The notes: generated by a model not told the origin, from the letters alone. A stretch of 64,000 nucleotides of DNA from a virus (IMGVR_UViG_3300032236_001065:17524-81523); one strand, 5' to 3'. Positions 3 through 62,877 are shown, counted from the first letter of the stretch. Program-made: numbers and translations.

Positions 3-380
3 ACAACTGGCGTTGCAACAAGCAAGAAGGCTACTGCAGGAGTAGCAGCAACAGGAGCAGCGGTGGCGGGAACAACTGGAATGATGCATACAGGAACTAC
101 AACAACTACTGCAACTACAACAAAGCCAACTACAGTATTTATAGCCCCTCCATTTCCAACATCTCAAAATTCATTTAAATTGGGTCAAACAAATGATGCA
201 GTATTAACAATTCAGAAGGCATTAGTTAAGAAAACATTACTTGCTTCAAAATATGCCACTGGAACAATGAATACTCAAACACAGGCAGCATTGGCTAAAT
301 TTGATCAAAAGCTGGGAATTATTGTAAAAGGTGGAGCAGTTCCACAAATAGTTTATGATAATTTGAAGGGATCGCTATGA
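3..380 (+). CDS. Endolysin C-terminal part (Thr-rich linker plus peptidoglycan-binding domain), 5'-truncated
   Basis: Frame is open from the window start; FKLGQTNDAVLTIQKAL...ATGTMNTQTQAALAKF resembles a PG_binding_1 helix pattern. Confidence 0.7.
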   Translation, partial: TTGVATSKKATAGVAATGAAVAGTTGMMHTGTTTTTATTTKPTTVFIAPPFPTSQNSFKLGQTNDAVLTIQKALVKKTLLASKYATGTMNTQTQAALAKFDQKLGIIVKGGAVPQIVYDNLKGSL

Positions 381-748
381 GCTTAAAACACCACTTTAAA
401 TTTAATGTAGGAGAGGCAAAACAGCTCGGAATAGCCCTTATTAGTTCATATGGAATGTGGGCAGCTACAGGATTTCAGAAAAGTATAACAGGTTTAATTT
501 ATCCTATTATGGGCTTTATAACAGGAGGATTGGCATCTCATAACTCAACAGCATCACCCAATGTTATGCCACAATCCCACATAGAAACCCCGTATGTTAA
601 TAACATAAATGATAAGAGTTCTGATGTTCCACCGCCCCTACCGCCTACATCTATCCCTACGGCGGGGGTTACAGAGCAGCCACAACAGCAATTTCAGAAT
701 GTAAAAGTAATACCAAAATCAACAGAAGGAGGAAATAGCAGTTCATAA
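377..748 (+). CDS. Membrane protein, possible holin/lysis accessory
   Basis: Two hydrophobic N-terminal segments, Pro/Gln-rich tail, ATGA overlap with the lysin. Confidence 0.45.
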   Translation: MSLKHHFKFNVGEAKQLGIALISSYGMWAATGFQKSITGLIYPIMGFITGGLASHNSTASPNVMPQSHIETPYVNNINDKSSDVPPPLPPTSIPTAGVTEQPQQQFQNVKVIPKSTEGGNSSS

Positions 749-812
749 AATAAGTAAAAATTTCACCTAAAATTATGACTTATTTATAAAGCTTGCTATT
801 ATTTATTTACAT

Positions 813-2207
813 ATGGAACTACAAAAAACTTATTGGAATAACAGTGGCTCTTCTCTAGCCCTCTCATTCCCAATCGCCAAGGTTGATAGAGAAAAAAGAA
901 CCGTATCGGGATTTGCTTCCCTTGATAATGTTGACAAGCATGGAGACATTGTAACTGCTGAAGCAAGCAAAGCAGCTTTTGATAATTTCAGAGGAAACAT
1001 CCGTGAGATGCACGGACCTTCTGCAGTTGGCAAGATGCTTAACTTTAAGGAAGACTCTTTCTTTGATAAAGAGACTGGCAAGAAATATAGCGGAATTTAT
1101 GTAACAGCATATGTCTCCAAGGGTGCACAAGATGCATGGGAGAAGTGCTTAGATGGTACATATACAGGTTTCTCAATTGGTGGAAACATTGTAGATGCAA
1201 AAATGGAAAAGTCTGATGATGGATCAGAATCAAGGAGAGTTATTCACAAATATGAACTACACGAACTTAGTCTTGTGGATTCTCCAGCAAACCCACTTGC
1301 AAATATTTTTTCAATTCAAAAGATGGCAGAAGGCATTATAACAGAGAACGTATTCTGGTGCAGCACTGATGAAGTAGCATCAACCGCAACAGCAACAACA
1401 AAGAGTTGTGTTGTTTGCGATGGAGAGATGACAAACATTGGATGGGTTGAGCAAGCAGATGTTGAGAAGTTTGAAGCAATTGAAAAGGTAATTGATTCTT
1501 ATTTCAAGAAAGATGATGCTCCAACATCAGCACATGAAGCAACGGAGACAGCAGCTCCAGGTTTGGCGGGAAATGTAATTGATAGCACAACAGCTATTAA
1601 TCTCTATCCTGATCAAAACACAAAACAAAAAGTCACGTTTAACGACGGACTTAAGAAGAGTGAAGAAAATTCACTCAACGAAGGAGGTAACAAAATGGCA
1701 GAAGACACAGATGTAACAATTGAGAAGTCAATTGATGCAGAGACTCCAGCCGAAGAAGTTTCATCTGTAGATGAGACATCAGAAGTTACAGCAACAATTG
1801 AAAAGGCTGTAGAAATCTCTGAAGTTGAAGATACACTTGATTTTACAAAGATGGTCACTGACCTCAAGACCTTCTTTGGTGAGTCTATTGAAAAGAATTA
1901 TGCCCTACAATCAGCTACTATTGCAGATCTCCAGAAGGTTATTGATGTAACCACTGCTGAGCTTGCAAAGGTGAACAATTCATTTGAGGAAATGAAGAAG
2001 TCACACACAGAGCTTGTAGAAAAGCATGAAGCCCTACAAAAGTCAGTTACGGATATGTATGGAAAGATTGACTATGTTGATCACCAACTTAAGGGCTTTG
2101 AGTCCGCAACTGCAGTTAAGAAGTCCGTTGGGGTTTCCGAACAACCAATGGCTACAATCCAAAAAAGTATATGGCAAGGACACTTCCTCGGTGTTAATAA
2201 CCTATAA
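813..2207 (+). CDS. Prohead (capsid maturation) protease fused to acidic/coiled-coil scaffold
   Basis: HK97-type protease motifs VSGFASLDNVDKHGDIV, REMH, GFSIGG, ELSLVDSPANP; directly upstream of the major capsid gene. Confidence 0.92.
   Translation: MELQKTYWNNSGSSLALSFPIAKVDREKRTVSGFASLDNVDKHGDIVTAEASKAAFDNFRGNIREMHGPSAVGKMLNFKEDSFFDKETGKKYSGIYVTAYVSKGAQDAWEKCLDGTYTGFSIGGNIVDAKMEKSDDGSESRRVIHKYELHELSLVDSPANPLANIFSIQKMAEGIITENVFWCSTDEVASTATATTKSCVVCDGEMTNIGWVEQADVEKFEAIEKVIDSYFKKDDAPTSAHEATETAAPGLAGNVIDSTTAINLYPDQNTKQKVTFNDGLKKSEENSLNEGGNKMAEDTDVTIEKSIDAETPAEEVSSVDETSEVTATIEKAVEISEVEDTLDFTKMVTDLKTFFGESIEKNYALQSATIADLQKVIDVTTAELAKVNNSFEEMKKSHTELVEKHEALQKSVTDMYGKIDYVDHQLKGFESATAVKKSVGVSEQPMATIQKSIWQGHFLGVNNL
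1695..2207 (+). CDS. Nested in-frame scaffold protein from internal start
   Basis: Strong SD AAGGAGGT at 1681-1688 before in-frame ATG 1695 (MAEDTDV...); acidic then coiled-coil product. Confidence 0.6.
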   Translation: MAEDTDVTIEKSIDAETPAEEVSSVDETSEVTATIEKAVEISEVEDTLDFTKMVTDLKTFFGESIEKNYALQSATIADLQKVIDVTTAELAKVNNSFEEMKKSHTELVEKHEALQKSVTDMYGKIDYVDHQLKGFESATAVKKSVGVSEQPMATIQKSIWQGHFLGVNNL

Positions 2208-2220
2208 AAATCTAACAAAA

Positions 2221-2234
2221 AAATAAGGTGGTGA
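2221..2234 (+). promoter_or_regulatory. Shared leader/extended SD AAATAAGGTGGTGA (copy 1, major capsid gene)
   Basis: Same 14-mer occurs before the major tail gene and before ORF 51409. Confidence 0.7.
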
Positions 2235-2243
2235 AATAAATAA

Positions 2244-3911: not shown

Positions 3912-4862
3912 TTGCAGACAATAGCAAACAACAGCCAAGTAAAAATAAAGTTAGAAATCTTCAGCGATGGAGTTCTAACTCAAGCAGATAGCGATCCTAA
4001 AGTATCATTCTATGATGCTGATAATGATGCAAGCGTGATAACTGGCTTTTCAAATTTGTCTGTAATAGATGAGCAACCTAATGGTATATACTCATTTTTA
4101 TTGACCCCCGCAATTACTAGTGTTAACCGAGTCCTAGAGGTCAGATGGACCTACACTCTTGGTGGAGTAACTGCTACACAGACAGACTTCTATCGCGTAG
4201 AGTCTCCATATGCAACAGTTTCAGAAGTTATTGACTTCCTAGGATTTGGTTCAACACCAGCAGATTCAAATTATGTTGATCCAAAGCAGATTGCAAATGC
4301 TGAAAAAATGGCAAGAACAATCATTGAAGGTTATACGGGAGTAAAATTTTATACATACTACGGTTCACAAGAAGTCCGTGGAATAGGTGCAGACATTGTA
4401 GAACTAACAGAAAGAATTTTAACTATTGATAAAGTTCTTGAAAATGATTATGTAGTTATTGATACTACAATTCAACCATATTTAAATACATTTGGGTTTT
4501 CTGTTGAGATAACGCCAACAGCTAAAGGAGTTCGCATCATGAACCCTGGCTGGGATGTTCAATATGACAATCAAGTAGATCCAACCGTAATGTACTATGG
4601 TAAGTTTAAAGATGGTGCAAGATATACTTTTGTTGGGCAAATGGGATATAAGTATGTTCCAGAAGATATCAAACAAGCATCAATGCTTTTAATTCAAGAT
4701 CTTCTTGCAAATGATTATAATTGGAGAAACAAATACCTTCAAAAGGTTGACCTAAGTGAAATCTCTTTTGAGATGGCAAAGGGTGCATTTAACGGTACAG
4801 GCAATGTAACCGTAGATAACATCCTAGACCAATATCGCAACGTCAATATAGTGATTATCTAA
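3912..4862 (+). CDS. Head-to-tail adaptor
   Basis: YATVSEV, ARTIIEGYTG, GYKYVPEDIKQASMLL, VDNILDQYR; position after capsid. Confidence 0.8.
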   Translation: MQTIANNSQVKIKLEIFSDGVLTQADSDPKVSFYDADNDASVITGFSNLSVIDEQPNGIYSFLLTPAITSVNRVLEVRWTYTLGGVTATQTDFYRVESPYATVSEVIDFLGFGSTPADSNYVDPKQIANAEKMARTIIEGYTGVKFYTYYGSQEVRGIGADIVELTERILTIDKVLENDYVVIDTTIQPYLNTFGFSVEITPTAKGVRIMNPGWDVQYDNQVDPTVMYYGKFKDGARYTFVGQMGYKYVPEDIKQASMLLIQDLLANDYNWRNKYLQKVDLSEISFEMAKGAFNGTGNVTVDNILDQYRNVNIVII

Positions 4863-5314
4863 TGTTTAACGCATCCGTTATAGCCTCTATTATGAATATG
4901 AAGGCTGATATCTACAAGCAACAAAATGCACAAGATCCAAATACGGGAGCAGTTACTCGTCAATGGGTATATCAAAAAACAATTCAGTGCAAAGTAGAGC
5001 CAATTAAAGTAGGCGGGGCATCAACTAGGGGCGACAATAAAGTTTATGCAACAAATGTTGAAGGTGCTTATACAGAGAAGATGCAGTTAAAGCTAAAAGG
5101 TCTTGAGCTTATGTCCAAGCGTTGGAGAATAGAAAACATTCGTTCAAGTGATGGTAAGCAAGTATATGTTGAAATTGATAAGATTGATTCTCCAGATACT
5201 AAGTTTGAAGTAACTTCTTCACACGCCGTGTTAGACCCCTTTGGTAAAATTTCTTATTATGAATCTGTAGTCACAAGAGTCCAGGTGCAGGACGATGATC
5301 CAACTTCAAATTGA
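4862..5314 (+). CDS. Head-to-tail stopper / head closure protein
   Basis: Synteny; ADIYKQ...DPNTGAVTRQW pattern of gp16-like proteins. Confidence 0.65.
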   Translation: MFNASVIASIMNMKADIYKQQNAQDPNTGAVTRQWVYQKTIQCKVEPIKVGGASTRGDNKVYATNVEGAYTEKMQLKLKGLELMSKRWRIENIRSSDGKQVYVEIDKIDSPDTKFEVTSSHAVLDPFGKISYYESVVTRVQVQDDDPTSN

Positions 5315-6014
5315 TACAGGGGCTATGATTGCCGAACTTGACAATAAGATAGCGGGAATAAAAGAATTAACATCTCCTTCTGTATTAACAGAAATTGCAA
5401 AAGCTACATTTACAATTACAGGAAATAGATTTGTTACAGATCTTGACAATTATGCAAGACGTAATCCAAAGAAAATGCACCATGTTTATGAATGGGGTGG
5501 AATTGGAAAGCCACAGTCAAGACTTTTTGTTTTAGAAAGAGCTGCTGTGCTATATGGCGATTTAAATGTAAATACTAGATTCCTACCCTCAAAACTTCCA
5601 GTTCCGATTAGCCCAGCTCTATTAACACCAGGACCAACTGGTAAAGTAGTTTCAAAAAGAAGTATTTTTGCTGATAAGGCAACTGTTATGGAAAAAGGAA
5701 CAAAAGTAAGTTTTTCTGCAAAAAAAGTTTTGGCTTTTGCAGATGGACAAGGAATTGCTTTTATTGCAAAGGGCACAACAATCAATATTAATAACCCTGG
5801 GGGCATACAAACAAAAAATGCTTTTGCCACCTATATGCTAGATTGGTATACTAAGAACGGCAATGTAGTCATGGATGGATCAGGATTTTATGAAAAGATT
5901 CAGGCAGAAACTGAAGCAGTTCTAAATGCTAACGGTACTGGGGCTACACAGGTCAAACAAGCGGTTATGAGGGCAGCAGAAGCTGTTTCAGCAGGAAAGG
6001 TAGAGATTATATGA
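5295..6014 (+). CDS. Neck / tail completion protein
   Basis: Synteny between stopper and terminator; HHVYEW motif. Confidence 0.55.
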   Translation: MIQLQIDTGAMIAELDNKIAGIKELTSPSVLTEIAKATFTITGNRFVTDLDNYARRNPKKMHHVYEWGGIGKPQSRLFVLERAAVLYGDLNVNTRFLPSKLPVPISPALLTPGPTGKVVSKRSIFADKATVMEKGTKVSFSAKKVLAFADGQGIAFIAKGTTININNPGGIQTKNAFATYMLDWYTKNGNVVMDGSGFYEKIQAETEAVLNANGTGATQVKQAVMRAAEAVSAGKVEII

Positions 6015-6529
6015 CAACTGATTATACACACGTAGCAGCCTACGATATTCGCAATTTTATATGGGCGGAATTGCAAAGTTCAGGGCTTCTTAAGCCTAGT
6101 GATTATATAGCTGATGGTTTTTCAGAACCACTAATTCCTATTATTCCATCACAACAAGTTCCAGAATTTAACAATCTTTTGCCAGGTAAAACATATATTA
6201 CTTATAATGTATCTCAAAAGAACTATGGTGTTCAGTGGTGGGTCTCAGAAGAAAATTTCATCATGGAAGTAGTTTCCAGAAATAATGCTCAAATTCAGAC
6301 AATAATTAACTTCCTGATAGACCTTTTCAGAAGATACGACCTTTCGGCTGGCGATCTTAATGTTTCGCTAGTAGCTGGAAGCCCATTCAAATTTCTCTGG
6401 TTTAGACTTGATACTTCAGATCCAGTTCAGCCATTTGTTGATGAAGGCGGGTTCATGAGTGGAGACCTCTCCATAGTATATGGATATACCCGTGAGGTTG
6501 ATGTATCTGGCAATGGCCGAATGCTTTAA
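6011..6529 (+). CDS. Tail terminator
   Basis: Immediately upstream of major tail protein; typical size. Confidence 0.65.
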   Translation: MTTDYTHVAAYDIRNFIWAELQSSGLLKPSDYIADGFSEPLIPIIPSQQVPEFNNLLPGKTYITYNVSQKNYGVQWWVSEENFIMEVVSRNNAQIQTIINFLIDLFRRYDLSAGDLNVSLVAGSPFKFLWFRLDTSDPVQPFVDEGGFMSGDLSIVYGYTREVDVSGNGRML

Positions 6530-6606
6530 AATTTGAATTATTTCCCTTCAATGCTATAGTTTTACTTGAGGAAGTAAGTTGTCATCTTTTTTGTTTATTC
6601 TAAATA

Positions 6607-6620
6607 AAATAAGGTGGTGA
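6607..6620 (+). promoter_or_regulatory. Shared leader/extended SD AAATAAGGTGGTGA (copy 2, major tail gene)
   Basis: Identical to the capsid-gene leader. Confidence 0.7.
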
Positions 6621-6630
6621 AATATAAAAT

Positions 6631-7416
6631 ATGGCTACAAGTACAAAAAATATTCTCGTTGGTGCAGCATCTATTTTCGTAAGCGTTGGAAACAGCTCTA
6701 ACGATGCAGGTCGCCCAAACACAAAAGCATCAGATTTAGCAACACTCATGCCTTCACAGACATCAGCTCGTTCAGCTCTTCTTGGATCTTCAACATTCCG
6801 TGAGGTTGGTTACACAACTTCTGGACTAGAAGTTTCATACGAGCCAAACTATGGTGAAGTGATGGTTGATCAGCTTCTTGATGCAGCTCGTCTATTCAAG
6901 CAATCACTTAAGGTTATGCTTAAGACAGAACTCACAGAAGCAACTCTTGAAAACCTTCAGCTTTCATGGGGTCAACTTGATTATGTCTATGGAACAAACT
7001 CATCTGGTACAGCTACTCAATCAATTCCATTGTTGATTCCTAATGACTCAACAGTTACAACTGTTTCAGATAATCCAGCAGCAACCCTTAAGATGGCTGC
7101 AGGTGCACTTGGTGATGCTCCAGTAGAGCGTACACTTATTGCAGTTGGTAATGCACCAGCACAAATTGGTTCTTCTGTTGCAACAACAGACGCAGGAACT
7201 GCAATCGGTTCTGGAGTAACAACAGCTATTGCTCGTAACAAGGAGCGTGTATATGTTGCACGTCGTGTAGTATCAATTGATACAACCGCACATGCATTGA
7301 AGCGTGACACAGCAACTGTGTTCCCAGTTTCATTCCGTTGCCTACCAGATAGCGATCCAAGCTACTCAGGTATGGAATACGGCGTAGTTATTGACCGTGT
7401 ATTCGGTACATACTAA
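6631..7416 (+). CDS. Major tail tube protein
   Basis: NILVGAA, VGYTTSGLEVSYEP..EVMVDQLLD, TELTEATLENL, FPVSFRCLPD; biased codons. Confidence 0.9.
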   Translation: MATSTKNILVGAASIFVSVGNSSNDAGRPNTKASDLATLMPSQTSARSALLGSSTFREVGYTTSGLEVSYEPNYGEVMVDQLLDAARLFKQSLKVMLKTELTEATLENLQLSWGQLDYVYGTNSSGTATQSIPLLIPNDSTVTTVSDNPAATLKMAAGALGDAPVERTLIAVGNAPAQIGSSVATTDAGTAIGSGVTTAIARNKERVYVARRVVSIDTTAHALKRDTATVFPVSFRCLPDSDPSYSGMEYGVVIDRVFGTY

Positions 7417-7447
7417 TCTGTAAACAAAACTTAATATAGATTTCAGG

Positions 7448-7470
7448 CCCCCGTCAATAAAAGGCGGGGG
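7448..7470 (+). terminator. Hairpin terminator after major tail gene
   Basis: CCCCCGTC-AATAAAA-GGCGGGGG followed by TTCT. Confidence 0.65.
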
Positions 7471-7528
7471 TTCTGAATTTGTCTAAGCACAAAGTATTGG
7501 TATAATTTAACTAACAAAAGGAGCTATA

Positions 7529-7864
7529 ATGGCAACAACAGTATATGATGTAGTAGAAATTGAATTAAGTAACGGGGAGACTGTTACTCTAAAACCCCTG
7601 CCTATTAAGCAGTTGAAGAAGTTTATGGATATTGTCAAGGAAATGGAACTGCCAGAGAATGAATCTGAAGATGCAGCAATGGACGTATTCATTAAAGCAG
7701 CTATGGTGTGCTTGGAAGCATCAAAGTCCCCACTAGCAACAAATAAAGATTTGTTTGAGGAAACAGTTGAAGTTCCTACAATGATGAAGATTCTTGAAGT
7801 TTGCGGAGGTTTGAAACTTAACGACCCAAACCTACTGGGAGCAGCTCTAGTTGGGACGAACTAG
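7529..7864 (+). CDS. Tail assembly chaperone (gpG-like)
   Basis: Between major tail and tape measure genes; slippery site near the 3' end. Confidence 0.85.
   Translation: MATTVYDVVEIELSNGETVTLKPLPIKQLKKFMDIVKEMELPENESEDAAMDVFIKAAMVCLEASKSPLATNKDLFEETVEVPTMMKILEVCGGLKLNDPNLLGAALVGTN
7825..7831 (+). other. Programmed -1 frameshift heptamer C CCA AAC
   Basis: X XXY YYZ in the correct phase; -1 frame open to 8142. Confidence 0.75.
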
Positions 7865-8142
7865 ATCTAGCCTCCCTTGAGTCCGAAGTTTTCTTGCTCG
7901 GTCATTGGAAAAATTATGATGAGCTTGAAAGCAACCTGTCGCTAGATGAGTTGATGGCAACATTGAACGCAGCTAGAGATAGAGAACATCGTGAAAGGAA
8001 GTTCCTGGCAGCAATGCAGGGTATTGATCTGGAAGAAGATAAAGAACCAGAAGATATTACAGCGTTGGTAGATGTAAGAACTGCAAGAGACGAAGGCTTT
8101 GGTATAAACGAAGGACTTGGTTTCATGAGTCAGGAAGGGTGA
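7825..8142 (+). CDS. Tail assembly chaperone frameshift extension (gpT-like)
   Basis: -1 frame reads ...SWDELDLASLESEVFLLGHWKNYDELE...; the 7894 ORF has only a TTG start and no SD. Confidence 0.8.
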   Translation, partial: PKPTGSSSSWDELDLASLESEVFLLGHWKNYDELESNLSLDELMATLNAARDREHRERKFLAAMQGIDLEEDKEPEDITALVDVRTARDEGFGINEGLGFMSQEG

Positions 8143-8145
8143 TAA

Positions 8146-11100
8146 GTGGCTAATATTCAATTAAAGATTACCGCATTAGGTGATTTTTCAAGCGTTAACA
8201 ATCAACTTAAAGCCCTTCAAACACAGGTACAACTTCTTCAAAAAAGTATTGCTGGTGTCGGATTAGATGCCAGCTTAACAACACAACTTAAAAATGTTCA
8301 AAATGAGTTTAGTAATGCTTTAGTATCTAGCGGTAATTTTACAAAGCAAACAGTACAATTAACTTCTGAAACAGAAAAATTTGGAGCAGCACTTCAAGCT
8401 GGAAAGTTAAAGCTTGGAGATTATTTTAGTATTATTACTGGTCGCTCGGGTGCTGCTCAAAAATCCGTACAAGCACTTGCAGTAGAACAAGTTAAGCTTA
8501 ATAACTCTATTGTCCAACAAGATATTACTAAGCAGGGTGTATATAGTGTATACACACCTACAACCATTAATGCTACTGCAAAAGCAGTTGAACTAGCAGC
8601 CGCCAAACAAAATATATTTAATATTGCTGTTCAGCAAGGATCTCAAAAGCTTATTGATTTTGGTAAGAATACTCAGTGGGCAGGTCGTCAGCTTACTGTT
8701 GGTCTTTCTATGCCAGCCCTGCTTTTTGGTAGCCAAGCTGTTGCAGCTTTTAAGGCAGTAAATACAGAATTAACAAGATTGCAAAGACTTTATGGTGAAG
8801 GTCTTACACCCCCATCACAAGCACAATTAACACAGATCTCTGATCAAGTTATTAAATTGGGCGCACAAGTTGCAACTCAAATGGGTATTGCACAGTCAGA
8901 AACTGTTAAAGTAGCAGCAAACTTTGCAGCTATGGGTAAAGAAGGTCAGAATCTTCTTGATGTAACATATCAAGCACAAAGACTTTCTAAGCTCGGTGCT
9001 ATTGATGCAACACAAGCAACAAACACTATTGTTTCGCTACAAAACGTTTACAAGGTAAGCACTATGGATCTTGCCAACGCAGTTAACTTTATGTCATCTA
9101 TGCAGAAGCAAACCACCATGTCGCTTCAAGATATGACTGATGCAATTCCTCGTGTTGGACCTATCATGGCACAACTTGGTGGTTCATACAAAGACACAGC
9201 AGTTATGCTTCTTGCAATGCGTGAAGCTGGTGTACCAGCAGCCCAAGCCGCTAACGCACTTAAATCAGCATTTGCATCTATCATTGCACCAACTTCAGCC
9301 GCAACAAAAGAGTTTGCATCGTTCGGTATTAACCTAGATAAAATTAAATCATCTGGAACACCAGTACAAATGCTTATGGCTCTGCAGTCAGCTCTTGTAG
9401 GAATAGCTCCACTTGCAAGAGAGCAGTTAATTGAAAAGTTATTTGGTAAGTTCCAGTTTGCTCGTGTGTCAGCACTTCTTGATAACTTTGGAAAAGTAGG
9501 ATCTCAAACACAAAACGCTTTGAAGGTAGCTGGTGCAACAAATGCACAGCTTGCAACTTTGGCGGGACAAGAAATGGCTCAAGCTACAGCTTCTACTACA
9601 GCTAAATGGCAAAGAGCAATAGAAGGACTTAAAGCTTCACTATATCCAATTGGTCAAAAGATTCTTGAAGTAGGAACAAAGATTATGGACTTTGGCCAAA
9701 AGATTGCAGATTTCTTTAATAAGTTACCTGGCCCAATTAAATCAGGTTTAGGAATTTTGCTTACACTTGGAGTTATAGCTGGTCCAGTAATTATGATTAC
9801 TGGTTTGTTTGCTAACTTATTTGGACAAGTAGTAAAGGTTGGATACTCACTACTTGGTGTTATTGATGGAAGTAAAAAGTGGAGAGAATTAATGACTCCC
9901 GCTGGAATTGCTGCAAAGACAGCAACAGATGCATTTCAAACAGGGTTGCTTGAAAATGTTACTGCAGTAGATACCCTTAACGCCGCACTTCAAAGATTGA
10001 TTACAAGTCTTGAAGCAATCAATACTGCAATGAATATATCAACTGGTTCTGCAATAGTTAGTACTGTAGAGGCAGGATTAGCTGGCGGAAAGATACCATT
10101 CAAAGCACCAGGAATGGCTACAGGAGGAGTTGTTCCAGGAACAGGAAACTCAGATAGTTATCCTGCAATGCTCACTCCAGGCGAAGCGGTAATTCCAAAG
10201 AGTGCAGTAGCAGAACATGGACCACTAATCAATGCAATTATATCTGGAAGTTTGCCAGGATATAATGGCGGACTTAGAGCTAATGTAAGACAGCAATATG
10301 GTGGAAACTTTAATTATTTGTCTGAAAGCGGAAATATAAGAAGTTATGCAGATAGAGAAGTAGCACACCTTGATGCTCCAATAGATTTGCCAACAGGTGC
10401 AAGTGAAGAAAATGCAAAAGTTGCGATGTACCATAGAGAAATAAATCAAGGTACAAACAGTGGCATGTCAGCACAGGACTACTTAGATTATTTAAATGGA
10501 CAAACAATGTCTGTAGGCAATGGTGGCAGATTAATGCCAAAGCTAAGAGTCGTTGATGCTGCTGGCAATCCAGCTTCAAGATCAATTACTCATAGTCAAG
10601 AATTGGCATATGGACCAATGGCAACAACTGCAGGTATCACTGATCCAAAACAAAGACAAGCTTTTTATGATGAAATTGATAAAAGAATAAAGGCTTGGTT
10701 AGAGCCTTTGGCTAAAGCTAACAAGCAGATTAAAGATGTCGCAGGACCAGGACAAGAAAGTGCAACACAAGTTGGTCAAATTGTTAATGAAGTATTAAAA
10801 CAACAAAGCTTTGGACAAACTCAAGATGCAATTAGTACTTTGGAAGCACCTCTTGAAACAAGAACTACGGGTAAGGGAAGATCGGGAAGAACTAGAAGAT
10901 TTGTAGGTGGCGATACTAGAATATCTGGTATAGTGTCAAAGATACTAGCTGGAAAAACAGTAACTAAATCTCAAGAAGATACCTTGATGGCATCAGGACT
11001 TATTGATTCAGGAAACTTTTCTAAGCTTGATTCAGAAGCAAGAAAACAACTTGAGATAGAATCTCCTTCCAAAAAGGGAGAAGCTACAGGAAAATCATAT

Positions 11101-13701: not shown

Positions 13702-14231
13702 TGTCATATATGCTGAATGCTGGAATTGAAATATCAATAGATAACTCTACTTGGTATAAATTAACTGATGATAATCGTCAACCCATTAAAGTTGCATATG
13801 AAGTTATTGAAAAGACTAACCGCATGGCAGACGGAACACTCCGCCGATATGTTATTGCAAGAAAACATAAAATAACTGCATCTTGGCAAAATGTCTGGAG
13901 CAAAACATCTTTATCTACAGATAAAAATTATGCGGGAGCATGGATGAAATCATTCTATGAAGCCAATGTCTTTATCCCAATTTATGTAAGATTAACAATA
14001 GCTTCTGCAAATACTCAGAATATAAATACTACAAACGGATTTATTCCTACAGAAACAATTGCAACAGCAGATGTATATACAAATGGAGATACATATGTGC
14101 CATCATATGTTGCAAATAGTTCTGGCAACATGACATACAACGTCTTTATAACATCATTTGATTATGAAGTTTTAAAGCGTAATAAAGATTTTGACTTGGT
14201 AAACATTAATATAGAGTTTACGGAGATCTAA
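13701..14231 (+). CDS. Distal tail / minor tail protein
   Basis: RMADGTLRRYVIARK motif; directly after tape measure. Confidence 0.75.
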   Translation: MSYMLNAGIEISIDNSTWYKLTDDNRQPIKVAYEVIEKTNRMADGTLRRYVIARKHKITASWQNVWSKTSLSTDKNYAGAWMKSFYEANVFIPIYVRLTIASANTQNINTTNGFIPTETIATADVYTNGDTYVPSYVANSSGNMTYNVFITSFDYEVLKRNKDFDLVNINIEFTEI

Positions 14232-39073: not shown

Positions 39074-39074
39074 A

Positions 39075-44086: not shown

Positions 44087-44087
44087 C

Positions 44088-48428: not shown

Positions 48429-48430
48429 TA

Positions 48431-49984: not shown

Positions 49985-50010
49985 ACCCCGCTCATACTGG
50001 GCGGGGTTTC
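49985..50010 (+). terminator. Hairpin after hsp20
   Basis: ACCCCGCTCA-TAC-TGGGCGGGGT-TTC. Confidence 0.6.
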
Positions 50011-51408: not shown

Positions 51409-51645
51409 ATGGATAACAACCAACAAGGTAAAGAAGGTGGCGTACAACAACCAGCTTCAGCAACTCCAGTAACGGAGGCAGCAGGCCCACAGGCAGGTCT
51501 TGCATCAGATGCAAAGACTGATCTAGGTGTAAACAACCCAGGTTCAATGAATGTCGGAAGCCCTTTCACGGGGCGTGATGTTTCAATGACCACTCCACAA
51601 TACGCTGGAGGAAATATCACGACAACAGAGGCGGGGTCAAGATAA
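51409..51645 (+). CDS. Small disordered protein, probably abundant late product
   Basis: Capsid-type leader; Gly/Pro/Thr/Gln-rich. Confidence 0.65.
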   Translation: MDNNQQGKEGGVQQPASATPVTEAAGPQAGLASDAKTDLGVNNPGSMNVGSPFTGRDVSMTTPQYAGGNITTTEAGSR

Positions 51646-52452: not shown

Positions 52453-52478
52453 GTTAATTATATATACGTATATATGTG

Positions 52479-52509
52479 CATAAGGACGGGAAACCGTCCT
52501 TGTGTATTT
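52479..52509 (+). terminator. Hairpin terminator
   Basis: CATAAGGACGG-GAAA-CCGTCCTTGTG-TATTT. Confidence 0.7.
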
Positions 52510-52518
52510 AGAAAGGAA

Positions 52519-52890
52519 ATGATGAGAGTATTAGTTTTTGGAGACAAAAATTGGCGGGATTATAATGATGTTATCCGCCAACTTACAGTATTAATTGATG
52601 ACCGTAAACACTTCTATCCAGATGATAAAGAATATGTATTTGTACATAAAGGTCTTCAGGGTGCAGAAAATATGGTAACAGAATATATTGGAAAAACCGA
52701 GAGATTCCTTAGACAAAAAGGCTATAAGATCAAAGAAGAATTAGTTAGAGATCGGACATCATATTCTGATGTCACTATGATTGAATCTATGCCAGATTTT
52801 GCTCTCATATTCGGGGATTGTCCAAGAAATAGACAATGCATTAAGTTGCTTGAAGCATATCAAATCCCGTTCAGAAATATCAAAGAATAA
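52519..52890 (+). CDS. SLOG-like (DUF2493/YspA-type) protein
   Basis: RVLVFGDKNWRDY...VHKG..GAE; SD GAAAGGA. Confidence 0.6.
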   Translation: MMRVLVFGDKNWRDYNDVIRQLTVLIDDRKHFYPDDKEYVFVHKGLQGAENMVTEYIGKTERFLRQKGYKIKEELVRDRTSYSDVTMIESMPDFALIFGDCPRNRQCIKLLEAYQIPFRNIKE

Positions 52891-53260: not shown

Positions 53261-53483
53261 GTTAACATTAGATTACGATTCAGCACACAAGTTTGTTGAA
53301 AAGAATAAGGATCAAGGCTTCTTTTGGGATGGCTTTACAATTGTAAAGTGGTCCCCTAGCAACAATGGTTTTATGCAACCAAATGGTTTATATAGAAACG
53401 GCAAGTGGGGATATTCAAATCGTTATGATTTGAAGTCAAACGGCACTTGGGATATAAGCGAGAAGTATGCCAAGTTCGTTTAA
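53253..53483 (+). CDS. Hypothetical protein
   Basis: FFWDGFTIVKW...GLYRNGKWG; coupled ORF. Confidence 0.65.
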   Translation: MAKLTLDYDSAHKFVEKNKDQGFFWDGFTIVKWSPSNNGFMQPNGLYRNGKWGYSNRYDLKSNGTWDISEKYAKFV

Positions 53484-53805
53484 TTTCTTAGGCATAGACA
53501 AGGAAGACCTTCAATGGTATCACCTTGCTGTATGCAATGGTATGACAACTAGACCAGACTTTGATTGGTTCTATGACTTGTATGAAGCTGACAAAGAAGC
53601 TGCAAAACAAGTTGATGAAATGTGTTTGTCATGTCCAGTTATTAAGATTTGTTACGAACAGGGCGTTAAGAATAAAGAAAAAGGCGTGTGGGGCGGGGTT
53701 TACATGGATCTTGGCAGACAAGATAAACAACATAACTCACACAAAACTCCTGAAACATGGAAGAAGTTAAAGAAGATTCATGGCACAAATAAAATACACG
53801 GTTGA
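53467..53805 (+). CDS. whiB: WhiB-family transcription factor
   Basis: W...AVC...CLSCPV...C....GVWGG. Confidence 0.9.
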   Translation: MPSSFNFLGIDKEDLQWYHLAVCNGMTTRPDFDWFYDLYEADKEAAKQVDEMCLSCPVIKICYEQGVKNKEKGVWGGVYMDLGRQDKQHNSHKTPETWKKLKKIHGTNKIHG

Positions 53806-54034: not shown

Positions 54035-54230
54035 GGAAACAATAGAGTTTGTATATATCCCAGATGAGGGTATCTACGGAACTATTATCCAATACGGTGC
54101 TTGGTCATCATTAATTGAATATTATGATGGCGGAATTAAATACACCATTGAAATCCCCAACGATGAATATATTGTTGTAGATGAAATCGGTGTCGGATAT
54201 ATTGATGAAACGGAAGAAGATAACGAATGA
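54021..54230 (+). CDS. Acidic hypothetical protein
   Basis: Operon-coupled ORF. Confidence 0.6.
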   Translation: MSDHEETIEFVYIPDEGIYGTIIQYGAWSSLIEYYDGGIKYTIEIPNDEYIVVDEIGVGYIDETEEDNE

Positions 54231-54457
54231 ATTGTTACTCTTGTAATAAACAAAAGGCAGGCCTTGAGCCTACTAGATCATCTCTTATTCCAGGTATCAC
54301 ATTATTTTTGTGTGCTACTTGCATTGAAGAGAAAATGGAGCCACGTTGGGTTGTTATCTTGGCGGGGCGTCAAAACGGACCTGAATATGTAAGAGATTGT
54401 GTATTAAAGAGACGTTATTTTGGACATACAATTACAGCGGAGGAATTAATTGCTTAA
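54227..54457 (+). CDS. Zn-finger protein
   Basis: CYSC...CATC. Confidence 0.65.
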   Translation: MNCYSCNKQKAGLEPTRSSLIPGITLFLCATCIEEKMEPRWVVILAGRQNGPEYVRDCVLKRRYFGHTITAEELIA

Positions 54458-56470: not shown

Positions 56471-56498
56471 GGGCGGGTTGAATAAACCCGCCCTTTTT
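56471..56498 (+). terminator. Intrinsic terminator
   Basis: GGGCGGGTT-GAATA-AACCCGCCC-TTTTT. Confidence 0.85.
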
Positions 56499-57537: not shown

Positions 57538-57840
57538 ATGGATTTAGAGGCAGCCGAAAATGCTTGGCGTGACCCTAGAGATCAAATTCAATATAAGTCT
57601 TTAAATAAAGTTCCATGTCCTTGCAATATGTGTGCCAGATCCCGTAAATTTGAAAGGGATGAAATTATAGAGGCACTTGAAGATCATAAATTAACTTATC
57701 AAAAATACCGTGGCTCATCATTTGATGCAGATGGAAATATTCTATGGATGAAAGATGATGTGCAGTCTTATACAGATGCTGTAAACGCCGTCCTAGACTT
57801 TATAAAAGGGCGGGAACCAAAGAAAGAGCCACGCAAATGA
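57538..57840 (+). CDS. Hypothetical protein
   Basis: ORF track; CPCNMC. Confidence 0.6.
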   Translation: MDLEAAENAWRDPRDQIQYKSLNKVPCPCNMCARSRKFERDEIIEALEDHKLTYQKYRGSSFDADGNILWMKDDVQSYTDAVNAVLDFIKGREPKKEPRK

Positions 57841-58853: not shown

Positions 58854-59258
58854 ATGACCCAGAATGAGTTAAGACTAAAAATATGGCGTGAGCCTGCACT
58901 TGGTGTTTATTATTATGAAATTGCCAATGCTGATGGTGTAGTTTATATTGAAGGAACAGACCCAAATCCTTATGGAGTAATAGACACTTTAGCTAATGAG
59001 ATGTGTGAACTAGGGTGGAGAGATGCCGATGAATTGTTAAAGTACATAAATGAAAAACTATCTTGGGAAAATAATACTGAAGCAGGTGCTGCTTACTCAG
59101 CCCTTCGTGCAGTGCTAGAACATCTCAAAGGTTGGCGGGATTGGGAATCAAGATGGAAAGGCCATATGTCTATGACTATTCTTGCAGATGAAGAAAGAAA
59201 TGCTAGATATAAACTTGTAAAAGAACTTACTGCTATTATTGAGAAGGAATTAGGATGA
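58854..59258 (+). CDS. Hypothetical protein, MTHDELL family C-terminal half
   Basis: DELL...ALRAV.E...IEKELG. Confidence 0.65.
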   Translation: MTQNELRLKIWREPALGVYYYEIANADGVVYIEGTDPNPYGVIDTLANEMCELGWRDADELLKYINEKLSWENNTEAGAAYSALRAVLEHLKGWRDWESRWKGHMSMTILADEERNARYKLVKELTAIIEKELG

Positions 59259-59479
59259 CTCACGATGAATTGCTGGCAGACATAAATGAAGCAATCCAAT
59301 ATGAAGAAGATAAGCAAGTATGGAAAGCCCTTCGTGCAGTAGTGGAATGGCACAGAGAGTCATACAACCCTAATATTATGGACAATAGAAGTGTCTGCCA
59401 GCAATGCACTACGGGCCTGGAAAATATTGTCCACTATCCATGCCCTACTATCCAAGTCATTGAGAAGGAGTTGACATGA
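59255..59479 (+). CDS. MTHDELL-family Zn-binding protein
   Basis: ALRAVVEWH...CQQC...YPCPTIQVIEKEL. Confidence 0.7.
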   Translation: MTHDELLADINEAIQYEEDKQVWKALRAVVEWHRESYNPNIMDNRSVCQQCTTGLENIVHYPCPTIQVIEKELT

Positions 59480-59727
59480 CACACGATGAACTATTAGAAG
59501 ATATTAAAACAGAGGCGGGTAAAGAGTTAGTTTCATATATGAATAATAACTATGGATCATCAATATGGGGTAAAGTCAAAGAGTCTGTAATAGCCATTGA
59601 AAAAGAATTATGCAAGCATGAAAACACAACATGGGACGGAATTACATGTGAGCAGTGCGGGGATTCTGATGAAACTTGTGATGATTGTGGTAAGTTTTTA
59701 AGTCATTTAGGAGATTGGTATGAGTAA
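59476..59727 (+). CDS. MTHDELL-family protein with C-terminal Zn ribbon
   Basis: MTHDELL...IEKELCKH...CEQC...CDDC. Confidence 0.65.
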   Translation: MTHDELLEDIKTEAGKELVSYMNNNYGSSIWGKVKESVIAIEKELCKHENTTWDGITCEQCGDSDETCDDCGKFLSHLGDWYE

Positions 59728-59948: not shown

Positions 59949-60203
59949 ATGCCTAAGAAAGAAAAACCATTATATCGTGTTGTAGTAGAGCCAGGAGGCG
60001 GTCACGGTCAATACCCAAAGTATGAAAAGTTTTGGTATATTGAAAAATGGGATAGTAAGAGTAAACGTTATTTCAGAACTGGCAACGATGGACTGCATGT
60101 TATCAAATGGTTTATGTGGCGGGCAATCAGAAAAGAATTAAAGAAACTCAACGCAGGATATCAATCAGAACATTACACCATTAACGGAGTAAAAATTGAC
60201 TAA
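59949..60203 (+). CDS. Basic hypothetical protein
   Basis: SD AAGGAG. Confidence 0.6.
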   Translation: MPKKEKPLYRVVVEPGGGHGQYPKYEKFWYIEKWDSKSKRYFRTGNDGLHVIKWFMWRAIRKELKKLNAGYQSEHYTINGVKID

Positions 60204-60333
60204 CGAGGAGAAACAAGAGCTTATAAACCGTATGGTAGGATTGGTCACAAAGACTGACGGCGGGCTCGTAGACTCCCTTATAGCCCGTTTATGGGTCAAT
60301 AAATGCATAGAGATAGTGGACCAATACGAATGA
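60196..60333 (+). CDS. Small hypothetical protein (TTG start, not in ORF track)
   Basis: SD GGAG; fills gap with overlaps at both ends; ARLWVNKC resembles ALLWIKKC of ORF 59720. Confidence 0.5.
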   Translation: MTNEEKQELINRMVGLVTKTDGGLVDSLIARLWVNKCIEIVDQYE

Positions 60334-60518
60334 AATATGACTGGGAGAACCCAAAGCGAGTAAACCACAGCAGCAACTGGATCTTAAACAAGATAGGCAA
60401 TCTTTGTGAACTAATGGCAAGACCACTAATGTCTCTGTACTACAGATGGGGAACCTTCTGGTCAATAGGAGAACTAAATTTTACAGAAGATATTGATGCA
60501 CAATTGGAAGAAGAATGA
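60330..60518 (+). CDS. Hypothetical protein, paralogous to 57837..58139
   Basis: GNLCELMARP...YYRWGTFW. Confidence 0.6.
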   Translation: MKYDWENPKRVNHSSNWILNKIGNLCELMARPLMSLYYRWGTFWSIGELNFTEDIDAQLEEE

Positions 60519-60871
60519 GCGAAAATCAGGAAGTAAATATTAGAATTTTTAAACTCTACGATATGTGGAGATATGAAATTAAGTCGGGCAAAAGAACATA
60601 TCTTGGATCTGGCAATGATTTTGATGATGCAGAAAAGCGGGCATTTGAAAAAGCTAAAGACTTTAAAGGAACTATTCATATTTGGTATGAGGGCGGGAAA
60701 GCAGTAGAACCAGTAACAGGAACATTTGCTGATGCTCTAGTAAATGAAGGATTTAAAAAAGTATTGGATGATCCAAAAACACAAAAAGTGTTAGATAAAC
60801 TTGGATCAGATTATGATGCAGAAGGCAAAGCATATTGGGATAAATGGGATAATGATTTTGGAAACCCTTGA
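60515..60871 (+). CDS. Hypothetical protein
   Basis: Coupled ORF. Confidence 0.6.
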   Translation: MSENQEVNIRIFKLYDMWRYEIKSGKRTYLGSGNDFDDAEKRAFEKAKDFKGTIHIWYEGGKAVEPVTGTFADALVNEGFKKVLDDPKTQKVLDKLGSDYDAEGKAYWDKWDNDFGNP

Positions 60872-60897: not shown

Positions 60898-60970
60898 AAG
60901 ATTCAAGCCCGCAAGGACTTGATTACGATAACTAACCCCACGAAAGTGGATACGAGAAAAGGAGAAATAC

Positions 60971-61369
60971 ATGCCAAATCCAGAGATTACTCTGAAAGGC
61001 AACTTGGCTTCACAGCCAGAACTAAAGAAACTATCAACAGGTTCATTACTCAAATTCCGAGTAATTACCAATGATTGGGTAAAGGATCAAAGCGGTAATT
61101 GGTCCAACAAGGATACTTCAGGCTGGAATATTGAAGTCTGGGGAGAAAAGGCTGATAAGCTCAGCAAGCACCTCAAGAAAGGCTCAGGCGTAATGGTCAT
61201 GGGTAAGATGCGAGAGCGTCTATTTGAGGACAAGGACGGCAATAAGCGTTCAGTCGTAGAGGTCAAAGCAGATAGCGTTGCTCTAGATATTAGCTCAATT
61301 GAAAAGGATTCTGGCACTAGCTGGGATGGCGATTCAACTTGGAACGCCACAGGGGATACACCCTTCTAA
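60971..61369 (+). CDS. ssb: Bacterial-type single-stranded DNA-binding protein
   Basis: ITLKGNLASQPEL, LKKGSGVMVMG, C-terminal DTPF. Confidence 0.93.
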   Translation: MPNPEITLKGNLASQPELKKLSTGSLLKFRVITNDWVKDQSGNWSNKDTSGWNIEVWGEKADKLSKHLKKGSGVMVMGKMRERLFEDKDGNKRSVVEVKADSVALDISSIEKDSGTSWDGDSTWNATGDTPF

Positions 61370-61474
61370 ACACAAATGGTCGTAGGCAGGTAAGAATGTG
61401 TGGGGGGTACTGGTCCAAAGTACCGTGTTCTCTGCCCCACACATCACCACAAACAACTAACAGGAAACGGGATT

Positions 61475-61663
61475 ATGAGAAAGATTACTGAACTACCAAA
61501 GAAAGATGCAACACAATGCTTTACCTATAAGGTTGAAATGATTATTCAGGTATTGGCAAAGGACGAAGAGACCGCAAAGAATAACTTAGACACAAATGGT
61601 GGATATGTATCACACCGTGAAGTTATACTATTAGATAGTGTGCAATTAAAGAGCGAGAAGTAA
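61475..61663 (+). CDS. Hypothetical protein
   Basis: YKVEMIIQVLAKDEETA...GGYVS.REV. Confidence 0.6.
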   Translation: MRKITELPKKDATQCFTYKVEMIIQVLAKDEETAKNNLDTNGGYVSHREVILLDSVQLKSEK

Positions 61664-61785
61664 TTGAGCGAAAAACAGGAAGACAATGTAATTGATTTCC
61701 CGCAAGCGGGAGTATCAGATGAAGATTTCAATATCTTCATGCAGGCCTTCTTAGGCCCATATAAGGGTGGAGGATATAACCCAGA

Positions 61786-61971
61786 ATGAAGAAGAATAAC
61801 AAGGCAGTTTCACAAAGAGGATTAAAGCGTGACGCTAAGAATAAAAAGCGTGTCAAAAGATCCACAGAACTTAAAGATTTTAATAATTTAGTCGGAACAT
61901 TTAAGTTTATGCAAGAATATATACGAAATGCGAAAAAGCAAGATGCAAATCAAGACACTCAGACTAAATAG
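61786..61971 (+). CDS. Basic hypothetical protein
   Basis: SD GGAGG; K/R-rich. Confidence 0.5.
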
Positions 61972-62386
61972 TGACGCCAAACTCCCCGCCTATGCAAAAG
62001 TAGGAGATGCGGGAGCTGACTTATGTGCAGCATATGCAATGACACTATTACCAGGGGAATTTAAACTTGTACCAACAGGTATCGCACTTGCAATTCCACT
62101 TGGCTATGTAGGATTAATTCATCCTAGATCTGGCCTTGCAGCCAAGCACGGTATCACCGTGCTTAACACACCAGGCACAGTAGATGCGGGGTATCGGGGA
62201 GAAATCAAGGTTATCCTCATCAATCACAGCAAAGAAGTGTATAATATAGAGCGTGGCGAGAGAATCGCCCAATTGGTTATTCAAAAGGTTGAAGGAGCAT
62301 TCTTTGACCCAGTAGATGAACTGGATGCCACGGAACGTGGCAATGGTGGATTTGGATCAACAGGAAAAGGCGGGGCATGGGGATGA
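61943..62386 (+). CDS. dut: Trimeric dUTPase
   Basis: [37 protein letters not shown]. Confidence 0.96.
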
Positions 62387-62877
62387 ATATCACAGTAACT
62401 TGGTTTACTATAATCATAGGGGGATATACACTTATCTGCCTATTTGGAATCAATTTCTATGAGAGTAAGCTTACAGACTCATTTAGAACATCAATGGATT
62501 ATAAGCGGGCATTAGATTTGGCTCAAGGTTCAAAACAGCATCATTCTGCCCATTATACTTGGCTACAAATGGAAGTGGGCAAACTCAATGCAGAAAATGA
62601 AGCTTTACAGGCTCAGATCAAATCTATCAAGGATGAAAATTCTGCCCTTCGTAATGGTATAAATCCATCAATTTGGAGTGTTAGACCAGTTACAGATAGT
62701 GCTGTATATGTGGCGGGGGAGTCCAAGGATATGCATTATGAGTCTAGTACATATAAGACAGATAGATTTGAATCAGCATATGAGAATAGTAAATACAATG
62801 GATATAGCCTATATGCCAATCAAATAGAACTAGAACTAGAGCATCCATATGTCAGACAATATGGATATAAGCCCTAA
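62383..62877 (+). CDS. Membrane-anchored coiled-coil protein
   Basis: N-terminal TM segment, central heptads. Confidence 0.55.

Follow-up and report, generated by a model that had tools for sequence, protein, structure and literature searches.

The hexamer GGCGGG is written about once per kilobase into a 64,000-nucleotide stretch of viral DNA, bases 17524-81523 of the 81,523-bp IMG/VR record IMGVR_UViG_3300032236_001065 (this whole stretch is hereafter the window), at a frequency for which protein sequence, codon usage, dinucleotides and restriction-site avoidance do not account. It sits in synonymous positions with rare codons, in all three codon phases and on both strands, and is a DNA-level word kept by selection or a directed process acting on its density, not on particular sites. 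We tentatively favour reading GGCGGG as a Chi-like word that controls an end-processing helicase-nuclease, with a probability of about 0.3. CheckV estimates the record to be 76% complete; the contig is without about one quarter of the genome, including an oppositely transcribed (inverted) block.

GGCGGG exceeds codon-aware expectations

The window has a G+C content of 38.2% and its + strand carries nearly all genes. Exact counting gave 48 copies of GGCGGG and 10 of CCCGCC, which reproduces the approximate totals of an initial annotation, with all of its listed positions matching. Base composition predicts 4.5 copies, only a handful as that annotation had supposed, and a first-order Markov model predicts 4.0. 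The shorter GCGGG occurs 79 times (CCCGC 24 times); 31 of these 79 are not preceded by G, close to the 30 or so extra (A/T)GCGGG estimated initially, and CGCGGG has a count of 0 in the genes tested.

Three null models were applied to the 96 + strand genes of the 81.5-kb contig that are not Gly-rich (62,061 bp), genes being called heuristically as the longest non-overlapping open reading frames (ORFs) and nine with more than 15% Gly being set aside. These 96 genes hold 48 GGCGGG and 9 CCCGCC. A synonymous codon shuffle that keeps protein and codon usage gave 3.0 ± 1.6 GGCGGG (maximum 11 in 300 shuffles) and 0.7 CCCGCC; swapping only codons with the same neighbouring bases, so that dinucleotide counts are also kept, gave 7.0 ± 2.4 (maximum 11 in 60) and 1.8; and a shuffle barred from creating TCGA, CCGG, GCGC or CGCG gave 3.8 ± 1.7 (maximum 8 in 40) and 0.9. 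Enrichment thus persists under the second model, a shuffle of the dicodon type that the initial annotation had proposed. Among all 4096 hexamers GGCGGG is the most over-represented (z 26.5), with its own sub-words coming next, and it occupies 46 of the 226 places that the proteins permit (the antisense word, 9 of 111).

The codons used, noticed as rare at the outset, are the rarest of their amino acids: GCG makes up 140 of 2081 Ala codons (7%), GGG 122 of 2576 Gly codons (5%) and CGG 25 of 754 Arg codons (3%). All three phases are represented, exemplified by the copies at 65 (xxG GCG GGx), 6446 (GGC GGG) and 59134 (xGG CGG Gxx) from which this had first been claimed. Of the window copies, phase 2 (Ala-Gly) accounts for 24, phase 0 (Gly-Gly) for 13 and phase 1 for 5, and the other 6 lie outside protein genes; the whole-contig figures are 30 for xxG GCG GGx, 21 for GGC GGG and 7 for xGG CGG Gxx, with 8 outside + strand genes. 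The initial annotation had proposed at its core that a selected DNA signal lies over the coding sequence, and this is supported by the three nulls, the rare codons, the three phases and the antisense copies in relatives described below.

The 5-mer GGCGG (134 in the window, 288 in the whole contig) is piled up in Gly-rich genes, which write Gly runs as GGC-GGT/GGA/GGC and not as GGC-GGG; the Gly-rich gene at 45042-48428 has 54 GGCGG and, as reported initially, no GGCGGG. In ordinary genes nearly all GGCGG have a further G next. Because the 5-mer is inflated by these Gly runs, the signal is carried only by the hexamer and GCGGG. This codon choice, together with the enrichment of the hexamer in the 96 ordinary genes, led us to reject a Gly-Gly artefact.

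More generally, the word might have no reader: it could follow from coding (Gly-Gly, Ala-Gly), from avoidance of CpG or of restriction sites, or from mutation or repair biased by sequence context, for example very-short-patch repair. CpG is indeed depleted (observed/expected 0.52) with CA and TG in excess, and CpG palindromes are avoided in the 81.5 kb (TCGA 0, CCGG 0, CGCG 1, GCGC 7 and ACGT 80 vs 282 expected), so the remaining CpGs sit in other contexts; the two strands behave alike, which a duplex mutation process would also produce, and the density of the word in relatives correlates with avoidance of TCGA and GCGC. However, the nulls that keep dinucleotides or bar the four avoided words stay far below the 48 copies observed, and escape from CpG loss alone cannot account for a count that is 10 times what plain base composition predicts. 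The Gly-rich genes, with their GGC-GGT/GGA/GGC runs, speak against a coding by-product, and GGTGGG, the deamination neighbour, shows no marked depletion (5 vs 7.0 expected), which leaves very-short-patch-like repair unsupported. A by-product of restriction avoidance was rejected on the constrained null, and explanations without a reader are largely excluded; we regard them as very improbable.

Anatomy of the word

The core of the word is GCGGG and the best 7-mers are GGCGGGA and GGCGGGG; the following base shows a mild preference for A or G, and no further specificity was seen. One-letter variants at positions 1, 2 and 6 are enriched 2-3 fold on both strands, and those at positions 3-5 are not enriched. 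Copies occur once per 1.1-1.3 kb, with a weak trend towards spacing slightly more even than random (coefficient of variation 0.78-0.88, P about 0.06-0.2). The six window copies outside protein genes comprise one in tRNA-Gln, three in strong GC-rich terminator-like hairpins (7463, 50000 and 56472), one in a weaker predicted hairpin (60259) and one with no strong hairpin (51630). Those in the tRNA and the terminator hairpins are a separate, ordinary use of GC-rich words.

Both orientations are enriched

The initial annotation took a strong strand bias to be a property of the signal, a view that was not supported. The raw ratio of 48:10 (~5:1) is close to the ~4:1 that codon shuffles predict because the coding strand is purine-rich, and measured against the synonymous shuffle CCCGCC is enriched 13-fold (9 vs 0.7) and GGCGGG 16-fold. 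The apparent 5:1 bias is mostly coding composition, and the same caution applies to such a bias of a G-rich word in any genome coded on one strand.

The contig stops just past a strand switch, and the sole copies beyond 62.9 kb are two non-coding ones on the minus strand. Polarity past the switch, a check suggested in the initial annotation, was examined in relatives, which carry an oppositely transcribed block of at least 16 kb. Across 44 non-redundant loci sharing less than 10% of 16-mers, inverted-block genes hold 106 sense copies (16.8 expected) and 137 antisense copies (12.2 expected), and main-orientation genes hold 80 (11.3 expected) and 20 (2.2 expected). Counting only inverted-block ORFs of at least 200 aa leaves 21 sense and 43 antisense copies, and in the inverted-block genes of locus L087 the word is antisense 7 times and sense twice. 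A distant contig, G006 contig 31 (C31; loci L171-L176; 109,918 bp), carries 37 copies on its main coding strand against 9 on the opposite one, and 15 against 5 on those same strands within its oppositely transcribed 20 kb; 20 of its 46 copies lie within the first 20 kb. This contig was binned in a cyanobacterial metagenome-assembled genome (MAG) and, judging from a WhiB 66% identical to that of the phage and the same layout, is almost certainly misbinned viral DNA.

The sign of any polarity depends on the baseline. By opportunity, the main-sense DNA strand of relatives is occupied at 19.4% and 18.7% of places and the other strand at 8.0% and 13.5%; by codon shuffle, the enrichment of antisense copies somewhat exceeds that of sense copies in each block. 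We conclude that the word is strongly enriched in either orientation and that any true polarity does not exceed 2-4 fold. Since the word is common in the antisense of oppositely transcribed genes, the signal is on DNA and not RNA, and an mRNA or protein cause, including an mRNA or translation signal, is ruled out. A candidate polarity switch at 62-67 kb of relative G003 was also rejected, as the word stays on the coding strand there.

Two further features belong to the strand-switch region. Non-coding strand-switch DNA carries the recurring sequence TTCGTAATGT, twice in window 63300-63460 and once in L087 at about 2176, directly after CCCGCC; it may belong to early promoters or operators. The oppositely transcribed block encodes, at L090 10001-11041 and in neighbouring genes, a DUF932 protein (E 1.3e-56), 2OG-Fe(II) oxygenases, an NlpC/P60-like protein and a glycosyltransferase. 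DUF932 occurs in leading regions of conjugative plasmids, and by analogy its presence would fit a first-entering early region.

A widespread but facultative trait

The trait is widespread among relatives, which are related genomes and not independent samples, yet it is facultative. GGCGGG outnumbers every other XYCGGG word in 80 of 126 related loci that are at least 10 kb long. Its median density, both strands counted, is 0.37 per kb for 46 capsid loci and 0.59 per kb for 78 inverted-block loci, and whole-record counts for the two orientations in five long relatives are 41/9, 18/4, 87/38, 37/10 and 49/24. The record behind locus L038 (G010), with capsid 85% and primase 76% identical, contains only 2+0 copies in 42 kb, with no obvious substitute word in L038. 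G007 (6+0 in 45.5 kb), G008 (1+11 in 57 kb) and G011 are also poor, and a count of 2 copies in 25.8 kb occurs among such relatives. Individual sites turn over while density is kept: the word is retained in 34 of 149 site-by-relative comparisons, no more often than background hexamers (a fraction of about 0.22).

Density correlates with restriction avoidance (rho -0.53 with TCGA and -0.61 with GCGC over 78 loci, which are related, so that p-values are optimistic), and this may reflect shared ancestry or a shared host. The avoided subsets differ among relatives, with CCGG avoided in most, TCGA, GCGC or CGCG in some and ACGT in few, and the avoidance of 4-bp CpG palindromes looks like host-specific restriction pressure. 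In the CCGG-tolerant relatives L068, L059, L066, L077 and L065 the top hexamer is TCCCGG, often as TCCCGGT or TCCCGGA (in L068, 7 observed vs 0.6 expected, and 1 vs 0.7 for the reverse complement). TCCCGG may be a sister word that shares CGGGA with GGCGGGA.

In the cultured Streptomyces phage BillNye (L082; 53% GC) GGCGGG is enriched only 2.5-fold, with 26+9 copies in 47 kb of genes, and in Streptomyces phage Paradiddles (L081-L085) it is not enriched (1 vs 3.6 expected). Paradiddles has instead GGCCGG, 25 vs 5.3 expected, which follows gene direction (4 vs 9 in the minus-gene block). We do not treat the weak or absent word of these cultured relatives as the same phenomenon. Both phages have 0 GATC in 50 kb. 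Paradiddles, which has long terminal repeats (repeated gene sets), carries genes for FtsK-like and Lsr2-like proteins and for 40+ tRNAs.

Pfam matches in the window comprise prohead protease, capsid protein, tape measure, DnaB-like helicase, DnaG-type primase, DnaE, RecA and a weak Cas4/RecB-like nuclease. Capsid, DnaE, RecA and WhiB are 44-57% identical to those of Streptomyces phages of the family Stanwilliamsviridae, with the same gene order, and WhiB is given as a marker of Actinobacteria phages in the available part of PMC10202952. Together these similarities point to a WhiB-encoding, low-GC freshwater relative of the Streptomyces Stanwilliamsviridae phages, with low-GC freshwater Actinobacteria as likely hosts. 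A WhiB scan of genome contigs for a host returned only two misbinned phage contigs. Besides C31, misbinning is also probable for a 2.2-kb contig of a Bacteroidetes MAG, and in the 5.4 Mb of the cyanobacterial MAG, which is not the host, GGCGGG is not in excess (366+356 vs control 415+433). Among cultured phages, WhiB matched only those of Streptomyces, Rhodococcus, Mycobacterium, Gordonia and Arthrobacter; the Planktophila phages, whose isolation is mentioned in the available part of PMC10202952, were not among them.

A proposed Chi-like control word and its alternatives

Under the favoured Chi-like reading, a helicase-nuclease would enter at ends or breaks of the linear phage DNA and, on reaching GGCGGG, would stop degrading and pass the 3' strand to the phage-encoded RecA; the DNA would be protected and the recombination that makes concatemers would be fed. 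The enzyme could be a host enzyme of the AdnAB/RecBCD type or a phage enzyme built around the RecB-family nuclease. Since entry at ends and breaks is possible from either side, the word would serve in either orientation. Enrichment on both strands, steady density, moving sites, DNA-level reading and dispensability in close relatives fit best with a conditional benefit tied to host or accessory machinery, and we also counted in favour the phage RecA gene, the long terminal repeats of cultured relatives (Paradiddles) and the tracking of density with the restriction-avoidance profile, a proxy for the host. As a short G-rich word with GCGG inside, GGCGGG may also resemble the AddAB-type Chi words of Bacillus and Staphylococcus. 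A more specific and still more tentative proposal is that GGCGGG could be the first recognition word of a freshwater actinobacterial or phage machine for DNA-end processing or defence, an orientation-tolerant Chi-like self word whose reader could be AdnAB and which would let the phage family escape degradation and drive recombination.

The best-documented precedent for GGCGGG would be the Chi enrichment of phages whose recombination-dependent growth relies on the host helicase-nuclease (Zheng et al. 2025; PMC12315714, cited here and below for the part of the article available). The Chi-rich phages LLS and P1 have one Chi per 1.9 kb, compared with one GGCGGG per 1.1-1.3 kb here, and both are short G-rich words, commonest of their length and far above codon-based expectation. 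The octamers that come next in frequency in LLS, P1 and MD8 have 7 letters in common with Chi; such near-cognate variants are raised in Chi-rich phages, as outer-position one-letter variants are here (2-3x). Chi sites come and go, and GGCGGG sites likewise turn over with density kept. Some lambdoid phages are Chi-rich and many are without Chi, a patchiness that GGCGGG shares among relatives (PMC12315714).

Several observations weigh against the Chi-like reading. Sites in known Chi-rich phages are strongly co-oriented and terminally clustered, 20:3 in LLS and 32:0 in MD8 (PMC12315714), whereas GGCGGG shows no clustering along the 81.5 kb and is enriched in both orientations, 16-fold and 13-fold in the contig and, for sense and antisense in relatives, 7.0x and 9.3x in the main block and 6.3x and 11.2x in the inverted block. 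The Chi-rich lambdoids of the same source are without recombination modules, whereas this phage has RecA and a RecB-family nuclease-like gene. Among the matches listed, searches with the WhiB and RecA proteins gave phage relatives alone and no host. To our knowledge no Chi word is known for Actinobacteria or AdnAB, and none appeared among the literature matches listed. Weak polarity, no terminal clustering and a phage RecA module are mismatches with the Chi precedent, and confidence is therefore held at about 0.3.

An alternative that we think unlikely is that GGCGGG is a start site for the phage's own DnaG-type primase, whose zinc ribbon would read CCCGCC (or GGCGGG) on the single-stranded template and lay a stable GC-rich primer in an AT-rich genome, selection having kept enough sites on both strands as the lineage turned AT-rich. 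The primase gene, with a CHC2 zinc ribbon, adjoins the DnaB and DnaE genes and was found in 5 of 5 further relatives tested (52-76% identity). Both strands need priming, and the spacing of 1.1-1.3 kb, slightly more even than random, is of Okazaki-fragment order; the invariable inner CGG with tolerant outer positions is like the core triplet and flanks of the sites used by T7 gp4, (G/T)(G/T)GTC, Aquifex DnaG and AtTwinkle. Sites of G and C only exist, since Aquifex DnaG uses CCC, GCC and CGC, all within CCCGCC (available part of PMC2532735), and the AtTwinkle site (G/C)GGA matches the end of GGCGGGA (available part of PMC5737085). BillNye has the word at similar absolute density, and in a T7 control two of three major pentamers are over-represented (TGGTC 71 vs 45, GTGTC 33 vs 19; GGGTC 31 vs 27). 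This T7 excess is 1.2-1.7 fold, however, not 10-16 fold, and known sites have 3-5 letters, DnaG-type primases reading three letters with weak flanks, compared with a hexamer at 7-16 fold here. Nor does the word accompany the primase wherever that is conserved: G010 with its 76%-identical primase, G007, G008 and G011 are all poor in it, L038 offers no replacement, and Paradiddles, with the same primase family, is not enriched.

It is possible, though doubtful, that GGCGGG is instead a binding word for another reader of duplex DNA carried by some clade members or hosts, such as a DNA-binding, coating or anti-defence protein, a modification target or a self word of the kind of the DNA uptake sequences and uptake signal sequences (DUS/USS). 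Duplex reading predicts the similar fold enrichment in both orientations, the outer positions show graded tolerance, and a facultative trait among close relatives is expected of an accessory gene or host factor; unassigned methyltransferase-like and glycosyltransferase-like genes were found at 38991-40567 by profile search of the window proteins. The DUS/USS of Neisseria and Haemophilus likewise occur independently of orientation at ~1 per kb inside genes and often form terminators as inverted pairs, as the pair 56472/56487 does here. However, they have 9-12 letters and are read by a bacterial competence receptor, not by a phage, and six letters are short for known self-recognition words. No candidate reader of this kind was found, no receptor for uptake or packaging is known here, nothing is known by which more sites profit a modification enzyme, and the ~2-fold preference for one DNA strand regardless of gene direction (19.4% and 18.7% vs 8.0% and 13.5%) is not predicted.

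A translocase guide resembling the FtsK-orienting polar sequences (KOPS/SRS) was also considered and found without support. Both are G-rich words scattered along the genome, and Paradiddles encodes an FtsK-like protein; KOPS, however, have 8 letters and are strongly polar, whereas the polarity of GGCGGG is weak once coding is corrected for, and the FtsK domain PF01580 has 0 matches in the 81.5 kb of this 76% complete record.

The word was not found described among the literature matches listed on phages, actinobacterial Chi or AdnAB, freshwater actinophages, Stanwilliamsviridae, or over-represented words and primases, a search that covered the articles themselves. This phage family is found very commonly in lakes, with more than 596 related capsid loci in IMG/VR and, among the matches listed, at least 120 RecA clusters at least 87% identical. 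Its likely hosts rank with the most abundant bacteria of fresh water and are difficult to study. A hexamer held at ~1 per kb despite AT pressure, CpG loss and rare-codon cost points to an important undescribed DNA transaction, and its reader, once found, could show how these phages protect or replicate their DNA and possibly provide the first Chi-like word for Actinobacteria.

Coordinates of sites and genes

Table 1 Copies of GGCGGG and genes discussed in the text, in window positions. Phase 2, xxG GCG GGx (Ala-Gly); phase 0, GGC GGG (Gly-Gly); phase 1, xGG CGG Gxx. Minus-strand copies read CCCGCC on the + strand.
Feature	Position	Strand	Context
GGCGGG	65-70	+	phase 2, ORF 3-380
GGCGGG	661-666	+	phase 2, ORF 377-748
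GGCGGG	1565-1570	+	phase 2, prohead protease/scaffold
GGCGGG	5012-5017	+	phase 0, ORF 4862-5314
GGCGGG	6446-6451	+	phase 0, ORF 6011-6529
GGCGGG	7463-7468	+	non-coding, 3' arm of GC-rich terminator-like hairpin
GGCGGG	9561-9566	+	phase 2, tape measure
GGCGGG	11454-11459	+	phase 2, tape measure
GGCGGG	12184-12189	+	phase 0, tape measure
GGCGGG	13174-13179	+	phase 0, tape measure
GGCGGG	13530-13535	+	phase 2, tape measure
GGCGGG	14353-14358	+	phase 2, ORF 14231-18364
GGCGGG	18405-18410	+	phase 2, directly 3' of start codon of ORF 18403-19530 (ATG GCG GG)
GGCGGG	18603-18608	+	phase 2, ORF 18403-19530
GGCGGG	20466-20471	+	phase 2, directly 3' of start codon of ORF 20464-21636
GGCGGG	20896-20901	+	phase 0, ORF 20464-21636
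GGCGGG	22944-22949	+	phase 0, ORF 21645-23348
GGCGGG	24643-24648	+	phase 2, ORF 24263-24691
GGCGGG	28032-28037	+	phase 2, DnaB-like helicase
GGCGGG	29533-29538	+	phase 2, primase
GGCGGG	30013-30018	+	phase 2, primase
GGCGGG	30129-30134	+	phase 1, primase
GGCGGG	31900-31905	+	phase 2, DnaE
GGCGGG	33658-33663	+	phase 2, DnaE
GGCGGG	34264-34269	+	phase 2, DnaE
GGCGGG	36595-36600	+	phase 0, ORF 36370-36696
GGCGGG	38386-38391	+	phase 2, ORF 37868-38425
GGCGGG	39462-39467	+	phase 0, ORF 38991-39809
GGCGGG	40752-40757	+	phase 0, ORF 40554-40895
GGCGGG	41235-41240	+	phase 2, ORF 40879-41415
GGCGGG	44078-44083	+	inside tRNA-Gln (44015-44087); structural RNA, outside coding phenomenon
GGCGGG	44358-44363	+	phase 2, ORF 44236-44778
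GGCGGG	49165-49170	+	phase 2, ORF 48425-49459
GGCGGG	49349-49354	+	phase 0, ORF 48425-49459
GGCGGG	50000-50005	+	non-coding, 3' arm of 12-bp GC-rich hairpin
GGCGGG	51630-51635	+	non-coding, no strong hairpin
GGCGGG	52553-52558	+	phase 1, ORF 52474-52890
GGCGGG	53692-53697	+	phase 0, WhiB-like gene
GGCGGG	54361-54366	+	phase 2, ORF 54227-54457
GGCGGG	56472-56477	+	non-coding, 5' arm of terminator-like hairpin; 3' arm CCCGCC at 56487, then TTTTT
GGCGGG	57809-57814	+	phase 1, ORF 57538-57840
GGCGGG	59134-59139	+	phase 1, ORF 58854-59258
GGCGGG	59514-59519	+	phase 2, ORF 59476-59727
GGCGGG	60118-60123	+	phase 1, ORF 59949-60203
GGCGGG	60259-60264	+	non-coding, predicted hairpin
GGCGGG	60692-60697	+	phase 0, ORF 60515-60871
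GGCGGG	62369-62374	+	phase 0, ORF 61928-62386
GGCGGG	62712-62717	+	phase 2, ORF 62377-62877
GGCGGG	13157-13162	-	antisense, tape measure
GGCGGG	14688-14693	-	antisense, ORF 14231-18364; SSRP peptide, as in three paralogous upstream genes
GGCGGG	25462-25467	-	antisense, ORF 25416-26171
GGCGGG	27540-27545	-	antisense, ORF 27462-27794
GGCGGG	28806-28811	-	antisense, DnaB-like gene
GGCGGG	35125-35130	-	antisense, RecA
GGCGGG	56487-56492	-	3' arm of terminator-like hairpin with 56472
GGCGGG	61985-61990	-	antisense, ORF 61928-62386
GGCGGG	63022-63027	-	non-coding, past last + strand gene
GGCGGG	63427-63432	-	non-coding, in hairpin then TTTTTT
Prohead protease/scaffold gene	813-2207	+	
Tape measure gene	8146-13701	+	
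DnaB-like helicase gene	27769-29010	+	
DnaG-type primase (CHC2 zinc ribbon + Toprim)	29348-30307	+	candidate reader; PF01807 7.5e-10, PF13155 9.2e-16
DnaE gene	31061-34336	+	
Phage RecA (recombination module)	34714-35712	+	PF00154 8.6e-37
Cas4/RecB-family nuclease-like gene	36812-37597	+	weak Pfam match PF01930 E 7.5e-4, below cut-off; syntenic counterpart in Streptomyces phages annotated RecB exonuclease
WhiB-like gene	53467-53805	+	

Other sequence features

Other words are over-represented window-wide. Against codon shuffles these are CCTAG(A) (CCTAGA 26 vs 7.6) and AGCGTG (22 vs 6.2), and against a maximal-order Markov model GGAAC (106 vs 66.7) and GGTTC (67 vs 46). Upstream of the window, at contig 6529-11997, lie five tandem paralogous Gly-rich genes (23-33% Gly); four of the five end in Val-Gly-Gly-stop, written GGCGGGTAA, and three share the peptide SSRP, encoded with CCCGCC.

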